From positions 5,088,001-5,152,000 of the forward strand of contig OZ242296.1 of NCBI GenBank assembly GCA_965207735.1: DNA of 64,000 nt, in the 5' to 3' direction. Within the stretch, counting starts at the first letter, position 1, and every line of letters begins with the position of its first letter. The DNA is from Candidatus Versatilivorator sp. (GTDB taxonomy: Bacteria; Acidobacteriota; Terriglobia; Versatilivoradales; Versatilivoraceae). Under the pieces are notes generated by a model. It had not been told where the DNA came from and made no database searches. It worked only from the letters and a program-made list of their open reading frames with translations. A program made the translations under genes and the position numbers. Positions 9,239 to 63,300 of the stretch are shown here, one piece after another.

Positions 9239-9426
9239 GGTTGCCTGAAACAACCGAAAAAAGACAAAAGAAAAAGAGCTATCCACGAAGGGCCACGAAG
9301 AACGACGAAGGGCCACTAAGGCGTTGAGGTTAACCGCGACGGGATACCAAGGTTGCGAAGGGATGATCGATTTCCAATGGTTTCACTCTCGCATGAACCG
9401 CACTGCAGGGCGGGGGCGGGACTTGT
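9239..9426 (+). repeat. Family A dispersed repeat (empty group II intron target), copy 1
   Basis: ATCCACGAAGGGCCA|CGAAGAACGACGAAGGGCCACTAAGGCGTTGAGGTTAA; matches 11461-11571, 34732-34920 and the intron flanks. Confidence 0.9.
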
Positions 9427-10411: not shown

Positions 10412-11431
10412 CTAGGGCCAGGGGCGTCCGGCATCGGTGGCCTGGATCATGCGCTCCAGCCTGTCGGCAATGTAGCGGGTGCCGATGGCAATCAGCTTCT
10501 CCCCTTTTTCCGTGCTGGCCAGCAGGGCCTGCTCCTGACGGGCGCGGTCTCTGGGGTTTTCGGGGTTGGTGGTCCGCTGGGCATCGAAGGGTTCCATATA
10601 CTCCCAGACCTTGGGCGGCATGTCCGATTCATAGTTCAGACCGGCCCGGTCGTATTCCTCCAGGGTGACGAAACGCACCCGGTCCGGATAGGCGGCCATG
10701 ACGATCGAGGTTTCGTTTTCGGAGGCATGGCTGTGGCCGGTCTGGCGGGCGAGTGTGTCCAGCTCCCCGTCCAGCTTCTGCCGGTAGGAGGTCAGGAAGG
10801 TGGCCAACTCCTCCTCCTTGTAACCCTCCCCGTAGGAGACGGCATCCAGGGTGACGCCCAGTTTGCGGCGCCACTCCGGGACCGCCCCCTTGAGCAGGCC
10901 ATGGTTTCCCCCGTGGCCGTTGACCACCAGGATGGTGCCGAACCCGTGAGCGGTGAGGCTTTCGATCACGTCGAAGACATAAGCCAGAAAGGTTTCCTTG
11001 CGCAAGGTGAGGGTTCCCTTGCGGGCCATGTGATATGGGGAGTAACCCACCGGGCAGGGCGTGGAGACCGTCACCCGGGGGTAGAGCCGGAGGGCGGCCT
11101 GTTGAGCAAACAAGGTGGCGGTGGCGGCGTCTGTGATCAGCGCCAGGTGTTCGTTGTGCTGCTCGGTGGATCCGGTAGGCACGATGGCCGCCTTGAGATC
11201 GCCGCTCTGAAGAGCTTCCCGGACTTCCTTGCGGGTTCGTTCCCACAGCAGAACTTTCTGGGGATGGACAAAGCCGGAGGAAGAGCCGGCCATGGAGGAG
11301 GAGATCAGGGGGGCGGAGCGAGAATCGTAGGCCGCTGCCGGAGCAGAAGTGGGGGACCCAAGGATGGATCCGGCAGCCCCGGCGGCGCCCAGGGATTGCA
11401 GAAACCTTCGACGAGAAAACCCTGGTTGCAT
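10412..11431 (-). CDS. Creatininase family amidohydrolase with Tat signal
   Basis: GSTEQHNEHL..D, VNGHGGN, HASENETS; FSRRRFL. Confidence 0.88.
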   Translation of the reverse strand: MQPGFSRRRFLQSLGAAGAAGSILGSPTSAPAAAYDSRSAPLISSSMAGSSSGFVHPQKVLLWERTRKEVREALQSGDLKAAIVPTGSTEQHNEHLALITDAATATLFAQQAALRLYPRVTVSTPCPVGYSPYHMARKGTLTLRKETFLAYVFDVIESLTAHGFGTILVVNGHGGNHGLLKGAVPEWRRKLGVTLDAVSYGEGYKEEELATFLTSYRQKLDGELDTLARQTGHSHASENETSIVMAAYPDRVRFVTLEEYDRAGLNYESDMPPKVWEYMEPFDAQRTTNPENPRDRARQEQALLASTEKGEKLIAIGTRYIADRLERMIQATDAGRPWP

Positions 11432-11460
11432 CGCACAATCTCCTTCGCGACCGTGACATT

Positions 11461-11571
11461 CCGTCGCGGTTAACCTCAGCGCCTTAGTGGCCCTTCGTCG
11501 TTCTTCGTGCCCCTTCGTGGATAAGTCTTTTTCTTTGTCTCTTGTCGTTTTTCGGTTGTTTCAGACAAGCC
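11461..11571 (-). repeat. Family A dispersed repeat, copy 2
   Basis: Reverse complement reads ...TTATCCACGAAGGGGCA|CGAAGAACGACGAAGGGCCACTAAGGCGCTGAGGTTAACCGCGACGG. Confidence 0.9.
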
Positions 11572-34603: not shown

Positions 34604-34700
34604 TCGGCCGTCTGCTGTCGCCGCCTTCGCGGCTCGACGTGGAGCTACCCCTTTCCATGGGCTCACGCCCACGGCTACCTGCTGCCGCCGCTCCGCGGCT
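34604..34700 (-). repeat. Family F REP-like hairpin cluster
   Basis: Reverse complement GCCGCGGAGCGGC..AGCCGTGGGCGTGAGCCCATGG..GCCGCGAAGGCGGCGAC; similar at 63214-63300 and 48049-48133. Confidence 0.75.
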
Positions 34701-34731: not shown

Positions 34732-34920
34732 ACAAGTCCCGCCCCTGCCCTGCCGGGCGGATCATCCGAGGGTGAAACAATCAGAAATCGATTATCCTTT
34801 CGCGACCTTGGTACCCCGTCGCGGTCAACCTCAACGCCTTAGTGCCCCTTCGTCGTTCTTCGTGCCCCTTCGTGGATAAGTCTTTGTCTTTTGTCGTTTG
34901 TCGGTTGTTTCAGACAAGCC
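34732..34920 (-). repeat. Family A dispersed repeat, copy 3
   Basis: Reverse complement ...TTATCCACGAAGGGGCA|CGAAGAACGACGAAGGGGCACTAAGGCGTTGAGG...GGGCGGGACTTGT. Confidence 0.9.
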
Positions 34921-47882: not shown

Positions 47883-48048
47883 GTCGGAATACTTCCACCG
47901 GGGGACGCCCGGAAGCGGGGAAACCACACAGAGATAATCTAGGGGAATTTCCCGTCCCCGGGCAGTGTTGTGGGTAAGGAGAGAGCTGCGAAGCTGCGGT
48001 TGGAGTGGGTAGGCCGAGCAAACGCTTACTACAAGCCATCCTTATCGA

Positions 48049-48133
48049 GCAGCGTAGCTGCGGTCTCGGGTAGCCCCGGGCGGGAGCCCGGGGTCGTTGG
48101 GTCTCGGCAACCTCGCAGCCGCGAAGCGGCGGA
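48049..48133 (+). repeat. Family F REP-like hairpin cluster, divergent copy
   Basis: GCAGCGTAGCTGC..AGCCCCGGGCGGGAGCCCGGGG..GCCGCGAAGCGGC. Confidence 0.6.
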
Positions 48134-59216: not shown

Positions 59217-60926
59217 CTAACCCCGATAGTTCAAGTGGATTTCCACGCTCTGCACCACCAGGGGCGGACGCAGCCGTGCATCCCGTTCCAGCAGGCGCAC
59301 CTGGACCACGTGGGTGCCCCGGGCAGCTTGTTCGGGCCGCAGCTTCCATACCAGCCAGCTGTCCTCAGCCACGTCCGAGGGGTTGTCCGGGTCCTCCGCG
59401 GCCACGTTGCGTATCTGAGGCTCGGGCAAGCGGGCGCCGTCCAGGCTGACTTCGACCTTGTCCGCGACCGAGCGGTGTTTCAGTTCCAGCTGCAGCTCGG
59501 CGGTCTTGAGATTTCCTTCGCGAGCTTCCTGAACCGAGTCATCGTAGACCTTGACGTGGAAGCGGGGGCCTTCCTCCGTCAGTGTCCGGTAGAGCGCCAC
59601 CGGGGTTTCTCCATAGAGGCGGTCGTGAAGGTCGGCGCCGGCCCAGTTTCCTTCCTTGGGTTCACTGAAAGGCCAGCCGCCGACGTAGCGGTGCAGGGTG
59701 GCGTAGACCTTGTCGGTTCCCTTGAGTGTCCCGAGCGATCCCACGGTCGTCAGCAGCGGGCGGCGGGTCTTTTCGTTGGCGTGCCAGTTGAAGCAGTAGA
59801 TGCCGTCGGCCCCGCGTTCCCAGTAGCCGGCGGCGGCGGCCCGCACCATGGCCTCATGCCATTCCTGGTGGGACTTCAGCCCCTGGTGGGGGCCCCAGAA
59901 GCCGCTGTCGAAGCCGGGATAGAAGCGGATCCCGCTGCCTTTCAGCAGGTCGAGGAAGGCTTCCACCTCCACGCCGTAATCGGTTCCGGCTCCACCCCCG
60001 GCCGCCATCATGTCGCAGAGGTCTTCCCGGACCCAGGTCTTCAGGTCGTAGCCGATGCGCCGGCAGGCCTCCAAGGTGGTGGCCACTCTTACCGACACGT
60101 AGAAGGGCCTGCCCCTCTCCCGGCCCAGGCGTCGGGTCATGGAGCGCAAGGCGCGCTGGAGGTCCGTCAGGGTATAGCTGAGGCGGGAGGCGTCATCCAG
60201 GGGCAGGTGGAAGGCGTGGCGCTGCCAGTCCAGCTCGACTCCGTCCCAGTCAGCCAGCTTGCAGACCTCGGTGACGCTCTGCAGGCGGAGTTCCCGGATC
60301 TGGGGGATGGCGAAGTTCCAGGAGGCCGCGAACCACTTGGGAGCCTGGCGGGGTCCCAGGCACCACTCCGGGTGCTGCTTGCGCAAGGGAGTCAGGCCTT
60401 CGATGCTGGCCTCGGCCATGTCCTCGAGCTGCAGTCCGTTGAAGTGGTTGTCGTTCATACGGATGGAGGCGTAGACATGCATTCCCAGCTCGTGACCTCG
60501 CTTCACCAGGGCGGCATAGGGATTCTCTCCCTTCCGCAGCAGTTCCCGGATGCCTTCGTTGTGCCGCATGGACCGCACCGTGTCGTAGAGGCGGCCCTGG
60601 GAGTCGCCCGCCATTTCCATGGTCTTGGAGGGCCACTTGGCCTCGTGCTCGCCGGTGCACCAGAAGTGCGCCCCCACCTGAGTGTCCTTCATGGGAGCGT
60701 ATGCCTTTTCCACGAACTGCTCCACCGATTGCGGGTACTCGGAGTAATCGTGCGGGGCTCCGTCCCAGTTGTAGATGACCGGATAGGCCGGTGGCCTGTC
60801 TTTGACGGACCCTTGGGAAGAACTGCCTGCAGCTTTCCCCTGCAGGGGAAATTCGGTCAGGGACCCTCCCCAGGCCGCCATGCCCAGGGCTCCCGTTTCC
60901 AGAAAGGTTCGTCGGTTGAATTCCAT
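59217..60926 (-). CDS. Tat-exported glycoside hydrolase-like TIM barrel (GHL10-like)
   Basis: FNRRTFL; YASIRMND.H, HPEW, DGVELDW.R, GADGIY.FN. Confidence 0.7.
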   Translation of the reverse strand: MEFNRRTFLETGALGMAAWGGSLTEFPLQGKAAGSSSQGSVKDRPPAYPVIYNWDGAPHDYSEYPQSVEQFVEKAYAPMKDTQVGAHFWCTGEHEAKWPSKTMEMAGDSQGRLYDTVRSMRHNEGIRELLRKGENPYAALVKRGHELGMHVYASIRMNDNHFNGLQLEDMAEASIEGLTPLRKQHPEWCLGPRQAPKWFAASWNFAIPQIRELRLQSVTEVCKLADWDGVELDWQRHAFHLPLDDASRLSYTLTDLQRALRSMTRRLGRERGRPFYVSVRVATTLEACRRIGYDLKTWVREDLCDMMAAGGGAGTDYGVEVEAFLDLLKGSGIRFYPGFDSGFWGPHQGLKSHQEWHEAMVRAAAAGYWERGADGIYCFNWHANEKTRRPLLTTVGSLGTLKGTDKVYATLHRYVGGWPFSEPKEGNWAGADLHDRLYGETPVALYRTLTEEGPRFHVKVYDDSVQEAREGNLKTAELQLELKHRSVADKVEVSLDGARLPEPQIRNVAAEDPDNPSDVAEDSWLVWKLRPEQAARGTHVVQVRLLERDARLRPPLVVQSVEIHLNYRG

Positions 60927-61060
60927 TTTGGGGACTCCTTCTCTTGAATGTCACCGCTCGCTGGGGCGGCGAACTCGGTCAAGGTCGTTGCGGAACCAAT
61001 AGCTTGGGGGTGCAGGCGCCCGCACACTGTAACACCAAAAGCCCGGAGGGAAAAAGAGTT

Positions 61061-61083
61061 AAAGAGTTATCCACGAAGGGACA
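61061..61083 (+). repeat. Family A repeat copy 4, left part (intron 5' exon, IBS1 at 61077-61083)
   Basis: AAAGAGTTATCCACGAAGGGACA abuts the GTGCG intron start. Confidence 0.88.
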
Positions 61084-63078
61084 GTGCGCCGTGGAAAGGC
61101 GCCTTCTTCTGGCGGGTGCGAACCCCGCCCAACAACTGTCGCTCCGGTTGGTAGCAGCCAGGGCGGATCATGGAGGTAACGAAATGGTCTGAAGCACTCT
61201 GGGGTCAAGGGCCGCCAAGGGCGGCTCAGCGAGCATGCGGGCCGGAACGCGAGTGAACGTCGAGCAGGCCTCGAAACGGACAATACGGAAGCCGACCCTC
61301 CTGTCTTTAGGGGAAGGCCGTTGGCGGATGGGGAAGAGAGCGACGCGGGCACCGATCCGCTTCCGTCGGGGTAGTGACGCTGGCACGCATGGAAGGGGAA
61401 GAAGGCAGCAACACGGGAAGCCCTGGGGGAGATGCGGCACACATCAACCGGGACCCCGCGAGGGGCAGGCCGGGCCGTCAGGGTGGCGGATGGGTCGGTA
61501 GTACCGGAGAAGCCGGGTAACGCCGGTGGAGGGAAGGGACCCTGAGTTGAGAGCAGCATGGAAAGGAGGCAAGGCGTGGCCACTGACAAGAGTCTAACAG
61601 GGTCAGAGGGGGTTCGGAAATTCCAGACCATGCTACATGCGAAAGCGAAGGAGGACCCCAAGCGGCGGTTTCATGCGCTGTCGGACAAGGTGTGGCGAGA
61701 GGACTTTCTGAAGGAAGCCTGGGCACAGGTACGCCGAAACGGCGGGTCGGCCGGGGTGGACGGGGAGGGCTTCAAGGACATCGAGGCGTATGGGGTGGAG
61801 GGCTGGCTGGGGGAACTGGCGCGGGACCTGAGGGAAGGAACCTACGTACCGAAGCCGGTGCGGCAGGTGCTGATCCCGAAGAAACAGCCCGGCAAGTTCC
61901 GGCCTTTGGGCATACCCTGCATACGGGACCGGGTAGCGCAGACGGCGGCTTTGCTGGTGTTGGAGCCGATCTTCGAAGCGGACCTGCAACCGGAGCAATA
62001 TGGCTATCGGCGGGGGCGGAGTGCCAACGACGCGGTCAAACGCGTGCATGAACTCCTGCAAAGGGGTTACCAGGAGGTGGTTGACGGCGACCTGTCCAAC
62101 TACTTCGGCGAGATTCCGCATGCGGAGCTGATTCGAAGCATTGCCCGGCGCGTGAGTGACGGGAGGATGCTCAAGCTCATCAAGGCATGGCTGGAGATGC
62201 CGGTGGAGGAGGACGACGGGAAGGGTGGCAGACGCCGCCGGAACCGAGGGCGCCGGGAGCGGAAGGGGACACCGCAAGGAGCCCCGATCTCACCGTTGCT
62301 CAGCAATCTCTACATGCGGCGCTTCGTTTTGGGCTGGAAGGTGCTGGGATATGCCCGGCGCTTCTGTGCGGAGATCGTCAACTATGCGGATGACTTCCGT
62401 GTACTCGGCAGGGCACCGGCGGCAGAGATGCTGACGGCGGTCAAGCGGATCATGGAGGAGCTGAAGCTACCGGTCAACGAGCGGAAGACCCGATGCTTGC
62501 GGTGTCCGGAGGAACCGATGGGGTTTCTGGGATATCGCATCGGACGCAACTATCGCCCCAAAGGGAAAGGAGCCTACATCGGCACACGACCCAGCCAGGC
62601 GAGCGTCCAGAGCATCTGCCGCAAGATCAGCGAGTGGACGGCGCCGAGGAACGGGACGCTGCTTCGAGGACAGATGGTAGAACACCTGAACCGGGCGATG
62701 ACCGGGTGGGCGAACTACTTCGTTCTGGGGCAGGTGAGCCCGGCCTACCGAGCGATCGACCGCCACGCGGGCGGGCGGCTGCGTCAGTGGCTCTGTCGGA
62801 AGCACAAGGTGAGGACCGGGGGGAGTGTGCGCTTCTCGGACGAGAGACTATGGAAAACCTATGGACTCACTTGCCTGGGGTCGAAGCCACAGAGCCTTCC
62901 GAGGGCGAAGGCATGATCTTGACTGAAAGCCGGATGCGGGAAAACCGCACGTCCGGTTTGACGAGCGGGGGCGAGGAAACGCAGCGAGGAACGAGATTGA
63001 GGCACCGGCGAGTGGCGAAAGCCGCCGGCAACAGCGACTCCCTCGATCTAAGGCCGGCGCGCCTCCCCTCGACTCTAC
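61084..63078 (+). mobile_element. Complete group II intron (1995 nt, IIB-type; probably bacterial class E/F)
   Basis: 5' GTGCG; EBS1 hairpin 61291-61318; RT ORF; domain V AAGCCGGATGCGGGAAAACCGCACGTCCGGTTT at 62927-62959; 3' end CTCGACTCTAC; excision restores an intact family A repeat. Confidence 0.93.
61558..62916 (+). CDS. ltrA: Group II intron reverse transcriptase/maturase without endonuclease domain
   Basis: RPLGIP..RDRVAQ, DGDLSNYF, GTPQGAPISPLL, YADD, FLG, GWANYF; 452 aa, no HNH. Confidence 0.95.
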   Translation: MERRQGVATDKSLTGSEGVRKFQTMLHAKAKEDPKRRFHALSDKVWREDFLKEAWAQVRRNGGSAGVDGEGFKDIEAYGVEGWLGELARDLREGTYVPKPVRQVLIPKKQPGKFRPLGIPCIRDRVAQTAALLVLEPIFEADLQPEQYGYRRGRSANDAVKRVHELLQRGYQEVVDGDLSNYFGEIPHAELIRSIARRVSDGRMLKLIKAWLEMPVEEDDGKGGRRRRNRGRRERKGTPQGAPISPLLSNLYMRRFVLGWKVLGYARRFCAEIVNYADDFRVLGRAPAAEMLTAVKRIMEELKLPVNERKTRCLRCPEEPMGFLGYRIGRNYRPKGKGAYIGTRPSQASVQSICRKISEWTAPRNGTLLRGQMVEHLNRAMTGWANYFVLGQVSPAYRAIDRHAGGRLRQWLCRKHKVRTGGSVRFSDERLWKTYGLTCLGSKPQSLPRAKA

Positions 63079-63197
63079 CGAAGAACGACGAAGGGCCACT
63101 AAGGCGTTGAGGTTAATCGCGAAGGGATGCCAAGGTTGCGAAGGGATGATCGATTTCCGATTGTTTCACTCTCGTATGATCCGCCCGGCAGGGCAGG
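63079..63197 (+). repeat. Family A repeat copy 4, right part (intron 3' exon)
   Basis: CGAAGAACGACGAAGGGCCACTAAGGCGTTGAGGTTAATCGCG... continues the repeat exactly. Confidence 0.9.
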
Positions 63198-63213
63198 AGC
63201 CCGGCTTCCCTGA

Positions 63214-63300
63214 GAGCGGCGAAGCCGCGGCAGCACTTAGCCGTGGGCGTCAGCCCATGGGAAGCGTCGCCTATTGGTGTCGAGCCGCGTAGGCGGCGAC
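63214..63300 (+). repeat. Family F REP-like hairpin cluster
   Basis: GCGGCGAAGCCGC..AGCCGTGGGCGTCAGCCCATGG..GCCGCGTAGGCGGCGAC. Confidence 0.75.

Follow-up and report, generated by a model that had tools for sequence, protein, structure and literature searches.

How can a group II intron whose target is read by barely more than six base pairs persist in a bacterial genome while sparing its genes? The question is raised by an intron in a 64,000-nucleotide stretch of Candidatus Versatilivorator sp. (contig OZ242296.1, positions 5,088,001 to 5,152,000; the window, below), which a preliminary description made from the letters alone had placed in a dispersed intergenic repeat. We searched the genome to which it belongs (G000, one contig of 5.26 Mb) and its relatives, and the answer suggested by the results is that the intron's guide is aimed at an abundant mobile repeat, here apparently amplified by a bridge-RNA-guided recombinase of the IS110 family of insertion sequences (ISs). 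In the reading that we consider likely, the intron reaches a short module of this repeat by retrohoming, and the module was probably amplified as the cargo of an IS110 miniature, mobilized in trans by a self-targeting IS110.

An Endonuclease-Less Intron in a Dispersed Repeat

The intron is complete (1,995 nt, ends GTGCG..AC) and is recognized by the Rfam models group-II-D1D4-4 (61110–61252) and Intron_gpII (62925–63078). It displays the hallmarks of group II introns, namely GUGYG...AY ends, the AGC triad of domain V, and a bulged A in domain VI. Its open reading frame (ORF), in domain IV, encodes a reverse transcriptase (RT) that scores 328.7 bits against TIGR04416 (cut-off 300) and whose nearest named homologues belong to Terriglobia and Ca. 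Versatilivorator genomes. A domain search of the 452-aa product identified RVT_1 and GIIM and no endonuclease (En) domain, in agreement with the preliminary description. The ribozyme without its ORF measures 636 nt (1995−1359); this length, the lack of En, a 5-nt domain V loop, and an alpha′ element that ends its stem-loop are IIE/IIF traits, the length, the domain V loop, and alpha′ matching those listed in PMC3753933. By its traits the intron is of the IIE/IIF (class E/F) type. A class C (IIC) reading was rejected on account of the 6-nt exon-binding site 1 (EBS1) and of an EBS2 segment that is present, with a perfect match in the sibling intron targeting IS1380 ends. The minimum-free-energy (MFE) fold of the whole of domain I is no better than those of shuffled sequences (z 0.67), so the structural assignments below rest on covariation and on local and consensus folds.

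61084–63078, + strand: group II intron, En-less, with IIE/IIF-type RNA (Rfam, genome copies)
61558–62916, + strand: RT/maturase ORF, 452 aa, YADD at 62383–62394, without endonuclease domain
61138–61144, + strand: alpha, partner of alpha′ (fold)
61283–61290, + strand: putative segment at the EBS2 position (placed by eye)
61302–61307, + strand: EBS1, UGUCUU, inside the terminal loop 61302–61309 (local and consensus folds, exon covariation)
61313, + strand: likely EBS3 (G), a position that we presume from the IIB architecture
61338–61344, + strand: alpha′ at the end of a stem-loop, a IIE/IIF trait (PMC3753933; local and consensus folds)
62925–62962, + strand: domain V, AGC triad, 5-nt loop (Rfam, fold)
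62963–63078, + strand: long domain VI with bulged A at 63072, and 3′ end (fold of 62915–63078, z −3.9)
61078–61083, + strand: intron-binding site 1 (IBS1), GGGACA (sequence)
61068–61072, + strand: TA-N-CC word at −16 to −12 (common to target families A, C, and D and to off-target sites)

Excision of 61084–63078 restores the repeat, as first described: the rejoined 24-nt junction has 18 exact matches in the intron-free genome (141 with at most one mismatch), and boundaries moved by 1–2 nt have only 0–1. The three empty copies reported from the window exist, with the junctions claimed for them. Their extents, given as 9239–9426, 11461–11571, and 34732–34920, shift somewhat when a profile of the 184-bp repeat unit is used, and there is a fourth copy that the earlier list did not contain. 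The intron-bearing copy itself consists of the module and a single IS110 end; the other IS110 end, which forms the opening ~26 nt of the 184-bp unit, is missing.

61055–61083, + strand: 5′ half of the host repeat, a putative GxxExxY-cassette terminal module, without IS110 end
63079–63206, + strand: 3′ half of the host repeat, with a ~50-nt IS110-derived end and a CT core at its terminus
9241–9423, + strand: empty complete miniature, allele GGGCCA (mismatch at −3), junction 9295/9296
11431–11569, − strand: empty 3′-truncated element (131/184 positions), allele GGGGCA, junction 11508/11507
34735–34918, − strand: empty complete miniature, allele GGGGCA, junction 34863/34862
1909–1942, + strand: fourth copy, module only

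Genome-wide, the profile has 327 matches, of which 168 retain both ends; arrays contain as many as four units, and the repeat offers about 290 target sites to the intron. It occurs in 12 of 13 genomes of the genus and in none of the 27 other genomes searched. Repeat elements avoid long ORFs (14/59, compared with 252/300 random sites), and six-frame translation of the 184-bp unit yielded nothing convincing as coding sequence.

Tabulation of the intron copies and their flanks, which had been suggested as a check, supports the association. The genome contains 13 copies that are at least 99.5% identical (nine identical, one with a 1-nt deletion), and 11 of these lie within the repeat module: nine at the main junction, one shifted by two bases with perfect pairing, and one in a truncated module head. 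The remaining two occupy unique DNA with a good IBS1. The +1 base is C in 12 copies and T in one. Besides these 13, the genome has 29 ORF-less derivatives (866–870 nt), a single 117-nt remnant, and two more coding introns that are siblings at 94% and 86%, which brings the total to 45. Thus the proposal that an abundant repeat serves as a multi-copy target stands, while its description as an anonymous safe harbor does not: as argued below, the repeat appears to be an IS110 miniature carrying the end of a GxxExxY cassette.

A Six-Nucleotide Loop Matches Each Intron to a Repeat Family

The preliminary description had paired the loop with the exon end over 7 nt. The 5′ ends of 84 introns were collected from 10 genomes of the same genus; 15 were truncated, deleted, or head-to-tail, leaving 69 with a readable loop and exon, which together with 44 introns of the own genome gave 113 intron–target pairs. 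In this set, 95% of the variable positions are paired between the ten loop hexamers and the exon ends belonging to them, compared with 52% for shuffles that ignore kinship (0/30,000 reach 95%). Because ten variants of the loop covary with the exon ends, the loop is indeed EBS1. Its length was overestimated: exon positions −1 to −6 are paired in 107–113 of the 113 introns and −7 in only 88, though −7 pairs in all 13 near-identical copies. EBS1 is best taken as 6 nt, and an EBS1 of 7–8 nt was rejected for this family, as was a full EBS2 in the same comparison; by eye, the EBS2 segment forms only 3–4 bp with the target here (GGA vs TCC) and 6 bp in the IS1380-targeting family.

The ten EBS1 variants of the genus aim at five repeat families. 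Introns with UGUCUU, UGUGUU, UGUGUA, UGUUUU, or UGACUU lie in the module (22/24, one of these in a sister module), those with UGAGAA at IS1380 ends (60/63), those with UGUUAA or UGUUAU at IS1634 ends (13/20), and those with UGUAAU and UGAAUU in two unnamed repeats (three introns each). All 11 introns of relatives with module-type loops are located in the module or its sister, and introns on the module allele GACACA carry UGUGU(U/A) as their loop in 6/6 cases. Close homologues in unrelated sequence, which the preliminary description would have counted against the pairing, do exist; they carry other loops and sit in other repeats, which refines the claim rather than refuting it.

In G000, two unnamed repeat families serve as targets of sibling introns, namely family B (14 copies, e.g., C1:2497470) and family E (32 ends, e.g., C1:143144), and the neighborhoods inspected contain no partner gene for either. 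Two empty IS1380-type ends, the target of a sibling family, lie in the window at 59219 (−) and 10414 (−).

Taken as a set, the 113 natural pairs provide rules for IIE/IIF introns, whose homing determinants are left open by PMC3753933: a 6-nt EBS1, wobble at −3, −5, and −6, and a TA-N-CC anchor.

Wobble Pairing Widens the Target Set

Of the 290 first-subunit sites of the repeat, UGUCUU fits 194 with no mismatch, though in no case by Watson-Crick pairs throughout; a loop perfectly complementary to the commonest allele would fit 150. Filled sites are confined to the matched class (9/194 vs 0/96 mismatched, p = 0.03). The copy at 9.3 kb has the single mismatch reported for it, and its allele class, GGGCCA with a mismatch at −3, is never filled (0/49). 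Wobble therefore widens the target set, as had been proposed, and a mismatch at −3 is not tolerated here; the tolerance of repeat variants suggested earlier is correspondingly limited, with 2/13 copies lying outside the repeat altogether.

Breadth of pairing may have been selected. The wobble-rich EBS1 might instead be a by-product: it would perfectly complement AAGACA, an allele two bases off register that could be older or minor, and/or folding would demand an A/U-rich loop, because C residues there would pair wrongly with the run of G in the stem; we regard this explanation as a serious contender, somewhat short of an even chance. Consistent with it, the lack of any wholly Watson-Crick site among the 290 coexists with a perfect complement of UGUCUU as a minor allele, the perfect matches being the shifted-register insertion, an off-repeat site, and locus L056 of relative G005. 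All ten loops have A or U at positions 5–6 whatever the target, and G005 L061 (UGACUU) occupies a GGGCCA site despite the mismatch. Selection is favored by the rank of UGUCUU, third by coverage among 256 UG-NNNN loops, by the occurrence of the widest of these, UGUUUU (201 sites), in relative G002, and by the match between GACACA alleles and their loops. The 113-pair set makes the idea of selection for wobble directly testable.

A Shared Upstream Word Likely Adds Specificity

Recognition appears to extend beyond EBS1. Of 11 distinct off-family sites, 10 have TA within −17 to −15, where ~5% is expected by chance, and none of 114 second-subunit sites whose IBS1 fits but which lack TA-N-CC is filled. 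Together with a bias toward the lagging-strand template, this word likely adds specificity. With the origin placed by dnaA, introns lie on the lagging-strand template in 11/13 near-identical copies and 38/45 of all introns, and orientation differs between filled and fitting empty first-subunit sites (p = 0.04).

A rival reading is that there is no real repeat targeting, and that the intron enters any TA-N-CC + IBS1 + C/T word, the repeat being merely a plentiful source of this word in intergenic regions, in which insertions can persist. The two off-repeat copies with a good IBS1, the off-target copies of the IS1634-end family (7/19), and the 168 of 293 genome-wide word matches outside the repeat set all accord with this. 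We nevertheless find it the less probable account, as the repeat holds 125/293 words and 11/13 copies, and each loop variant in the genus maps to one abundant repeat family. Mechanistically it is compatible with the targeting that we propose, differing only in the role given to purifying selection.

The Host Repeat Is Likely an IS110 Miniature

Both ends of the repeat are those of a 1.68-kb element present in ten copies, each in front of a repeat start (10/10) and all outside the window. It encodes an IS110 DEDD recombinase (NF033542, 222 bits with a cut-off of 140; PF01548 + PF02371). The 168 repeat copies with both parental ends lack the recombinase gene. The non-coding end of this IS110 (257 nt) contains two guide-like words. 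The second (donor) guide is identical to the end of the element that carries it, and the two vary together in 10/10 copies and at 13/13 loci of relatives; the first (target) guide also equals the element's own end here, and in relative G008 it changes together with the flanking target. Moreover, the flanks of 89 unstacked repeat ends resemble the element's own end (flank logo), and 115/204 ends are followed by another element, with 29 arrays of 2–4. MFE folding of the IS110 non-coding end did not recover the two-loop fold of a bridge RNA. Because both ends are common to the IS110 and the predicted guides match those ends, we take the repeat to be, likely, a gene-less IS110 miniature inverted-repeat transposable element (MITE) that would be moved in trans by a self-targeting IS110.

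At two loci of G008 (L123 and L132), an 80%-identical IS110 has its target guide switched to a 7-nt tandem repeat, i.e., a natural retargeting of a bridge RNA.

The repeat might instead be a REP/REPIN-like (repetitive extragenic palindrome) or cassette-derived sequence that is only targeted by IS110, but we consider this improbable. The abutment of all ten IS110 copies on a repeat, the precedence of the module over the IS110 ends (several relatives match only the module part), and the existence of REP-targeting IS110s (PMC1525189) would be expected under such a view. On the other hand, the IS-side shared end varies with IS subtype and donor guide (10/10) and hence belongs to the IS, and the repeat contains, besides this shared end, ~50 nt of the opposite IS110 end. 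Readings of the IS91, integron, and REP types were dropped once the IS110 partner was found.

The cargo in which the intron lands has its own history. At 7 of 34 loci examined (30 of 46 matches in one search and four from another), genes of one GxxExxY subfamily (TIGR04256) lie between two inward-facing copies of the same module. We therefore interpret the module, from the arrangement of these loci, as a putative terminal repeat of GxxExxY gene cassettes, and since several relatives match only the cargo part, it is older than its proposed capture by IS110. At loci L151–L179 the GxxExxY subfamilies are each flanked by a different inward-facing repeat of short period; in the own genome, shortened remnants of GxxExxY genes adjoin repeats.

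Separate Insertions and a Proposed Mechanism

Host units of the intron differ from one another by 13–34 edits, the unit nearest to each of the five intron-bearing complete units is empty (5/5), and the orthologous site is intron-free in 4/4 relatives; the copies are therefore recent, separate insertions. Passive spread, whether inside loaded miniatures that IS110 mobilizes or through recombination or gene conversion between repeats, is very unlikely: five copies do sit in complete units and the loaded size of ~2.2 kb is near that of the IS110, but (nearly) identical introns in such divergent units with empty nearest neighbors lead us to reject co-transposition. In addition, unique DNA holds two of the copies, and the host unit in the window lacks one IS110 end.

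The mechanism that we propose combines retrohoming with an IS110-amplified module. Originally, the module would have been a terminal repeat of a GxxExxY cassette, facing inward, which was then captured between the two ends of an IS110 with a CT/AG core. As the IS110 target guide matches the same end, recombinase and bridge RNA acting in trans could then seed copies at look-alike sites, stacked head to tail; excision and insertion of the miniature at a two-base core are modeled on PMC12288879. The intron ribonucleoprotein would reverse-splice into the single-stranded lagging-strand template at replication forks, reading IBS1 through six base pairs that include two or three U-G wobbles, with further recognition of the +1 C/T and of TA-N-CC at −16 to −12 by the protein and/or a short EBS2. 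Nascent DNA would prime the cDNA. The steps of reverse splicing into the lagging template, nascent-DNA priming, and protein contact near −16/−15 follow RmInt1 and RmInt2 (PMC4615759, PMC5894124). Point changes in the loop may retarget siblings to other repeats or follow local module alleles, and ORF-less siblings would borrow the protein. One mobile element thus probably multiplies the landing sites of another.

A bolder version, which we put forward tentatively and would not rate as probable, is that two RNA-guided systems are chained: the self-targeting IS110 continually makes landing pads out of a nuclease-cassette end, and introns chase them through selection on a six-base guide whose wobble loop covers most alleles in each species, while changes of two to four bases would carry the lineage to the ends of IS1380, IS1634, and other repeats. 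If true, the genus would hold a natural collection of En-less targetrons, each reprogrammed in its guide but all keeping the same two-base anchor for the protein.

Several observations weigh against the proposed mechanism. On the side of the intron, the covariation shuffles take no account of kinship, only 9/194 fitting sites are filled, and the +1 base is variable in the IS1634-end family, contrary to a strict EBS3 rule. By local GC skew the lagging-strand template is used by 8/13 copies (not significant; 36/45 of all introns), and the orientation of filled sites compared with all empty first-subunit sites is 7/9 vs 139/281 (p = 0.17). Exon joints in assembled contigs of seven public runs are indistinguishable from empty repeat DNA, as the joined form exists as DNA. 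On the side of the IS110, the target guide predicts, by eye, the diagnostic base in only 7/10 of its own insertions, no circle intermediate was seen, and relatives G009 and G011 have full-length miniatures but no match to this IS110 (E ≤ 1e-60).

Relation to Known Systems

The preliminary description noted that some group II introns exploit repeated targets and did not recognize this particular intron–repeat pairing as described; homing into a repeated mobile sequence with relaxed pairing has precedent. Multi-copy mobile-DNA targets, relaxed pairing, EBS-defined families, and ORF-less hitch-hikers are already documented in RmInt2 (PMC4615759) and in the TeI introns (PMC2882425). RmInt2 and RmInt1 of Sinorhizobium meliloti (class D) resemble the present intron in being En-less, in using a multi-copy target in a mobile element (inverted repeats of ISRm17; ISRm2011-2), and in their relaxed EBS2 pairing, critical bases at −16/−15, and lagging-template bias (PMC4615759, PMC5894124). 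Whereas their target is the inverted repeat or gene of an autonomous IS, here an IIE/IIF-type RNA enters the cargo carried inside a likely IS110 miniature without genes, which offers ~290 sites, and its siblings cover five target families. In TeI3/TeI4 of Thermosynechococcus elongatus, as here, the lineage is split by EBS changes, ORF-less copies outnumber coding ones, and one family sits in an IS; however, the TeI proteins are described as cleaving with En and have mostly unique targets, in contrast to an En-less protein and an abundant repeat per family (PMC2882425).

For the repeat, the closest parallel is MITEPpu9/ssr9 with the IS110 element ISPpu9 of Pseudomonas putida, a gene-less module between both IS110 ends with an AG core, found beside the IS and in tandem (PMC12288879). 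ISPpu9 targets REPs, whereas the guide predicted here equals the element's own end, and MITEPpu9 has 8 copies, compared with 168 complete ones here whose cargo is a putative GxxExxY-cassette end and an intron homing site (PMC12288879). Also in P. putida, 2/9 introns are REP-associated (PMC1525189).

Class E/F introns likewise lack En, have a weak EBS2, and resemble the present intron in the 5-nt loop of domain V, in an alpha′ that ends a stem-loop, and in their length without the ORF (636 nt here); the excerpts of PMC3753933 and PMC3552965 contain no statement on repeat targeting. Class C introns at terminators and attC sites likewise use a recurring non-coding motif, but they have no EBS2, a short EBS1, and a required hairpin (PMC4424553), in contrast to the sequence-covarying 6-nt EBS1 here. 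Neither an intron in an IS110 MITE or GxxExxY flank nor the chain of all three elements was found in the literature searched, a set outside which most subscription papers fall. As each ingredient has precedent, the advance lies in the combination and in the natural retargeting series, not in a new mechanism. Distant homologues (74–80% aa, 51 loci) have the module in 0/11 parsed 5′ exons and 0/44 parsed 3′ exons, so the intron–module pairing looks limited to the genus; four of them, from one alphaproteobacterial genome, carry the IS1380-end loop.

Related Copies and Neighboring Elements

One off-repeat copy (G000 C1:2851096–2853090, −) lies in sense orientation 4 nt before the ATG of a long ORF, after a purine-rich stretch, and from this position expression of the ORF may depend on splicing. 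Internally deleted remnants with exact ends are retained at target sites (117 nt, G000 C1:4260992–4261108; 313 nt, L102). The G000 ORF-less derivatives of two target families have one distinct 3′ half (domains IV–VI; e.g., C1:54800–55668 and C1:1134708–1135573), and domain I appears, from such comparisons, to have been swapped among intron chassis. ORF-less copies aimed at the module are present in relatives G004, G005, and G008. At L098 (G011:C1:155437–159432) two introns stand head to tail, as known for RmInt2, and the distant locus L256 is similar.

Genome-wide, empty fitting sites are under-represented on the lagging-strand template (family A, 34/101; family C, 31/95), which for family C fits consumption by introns. 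Two RNA runs contain the sister loop UGGUUU and the GGGCCA allele, unlinked, which is a weak hint, and several public runs containing this stretch are labelled sponge metagenome. Finally, REP-like hairpins of the Acido-Lenti-1 type occur in the window at 63215–63260, 34655–34700, and 48048–48093; two stand directly behind repeat copies, and they are elements separate from the repeat.

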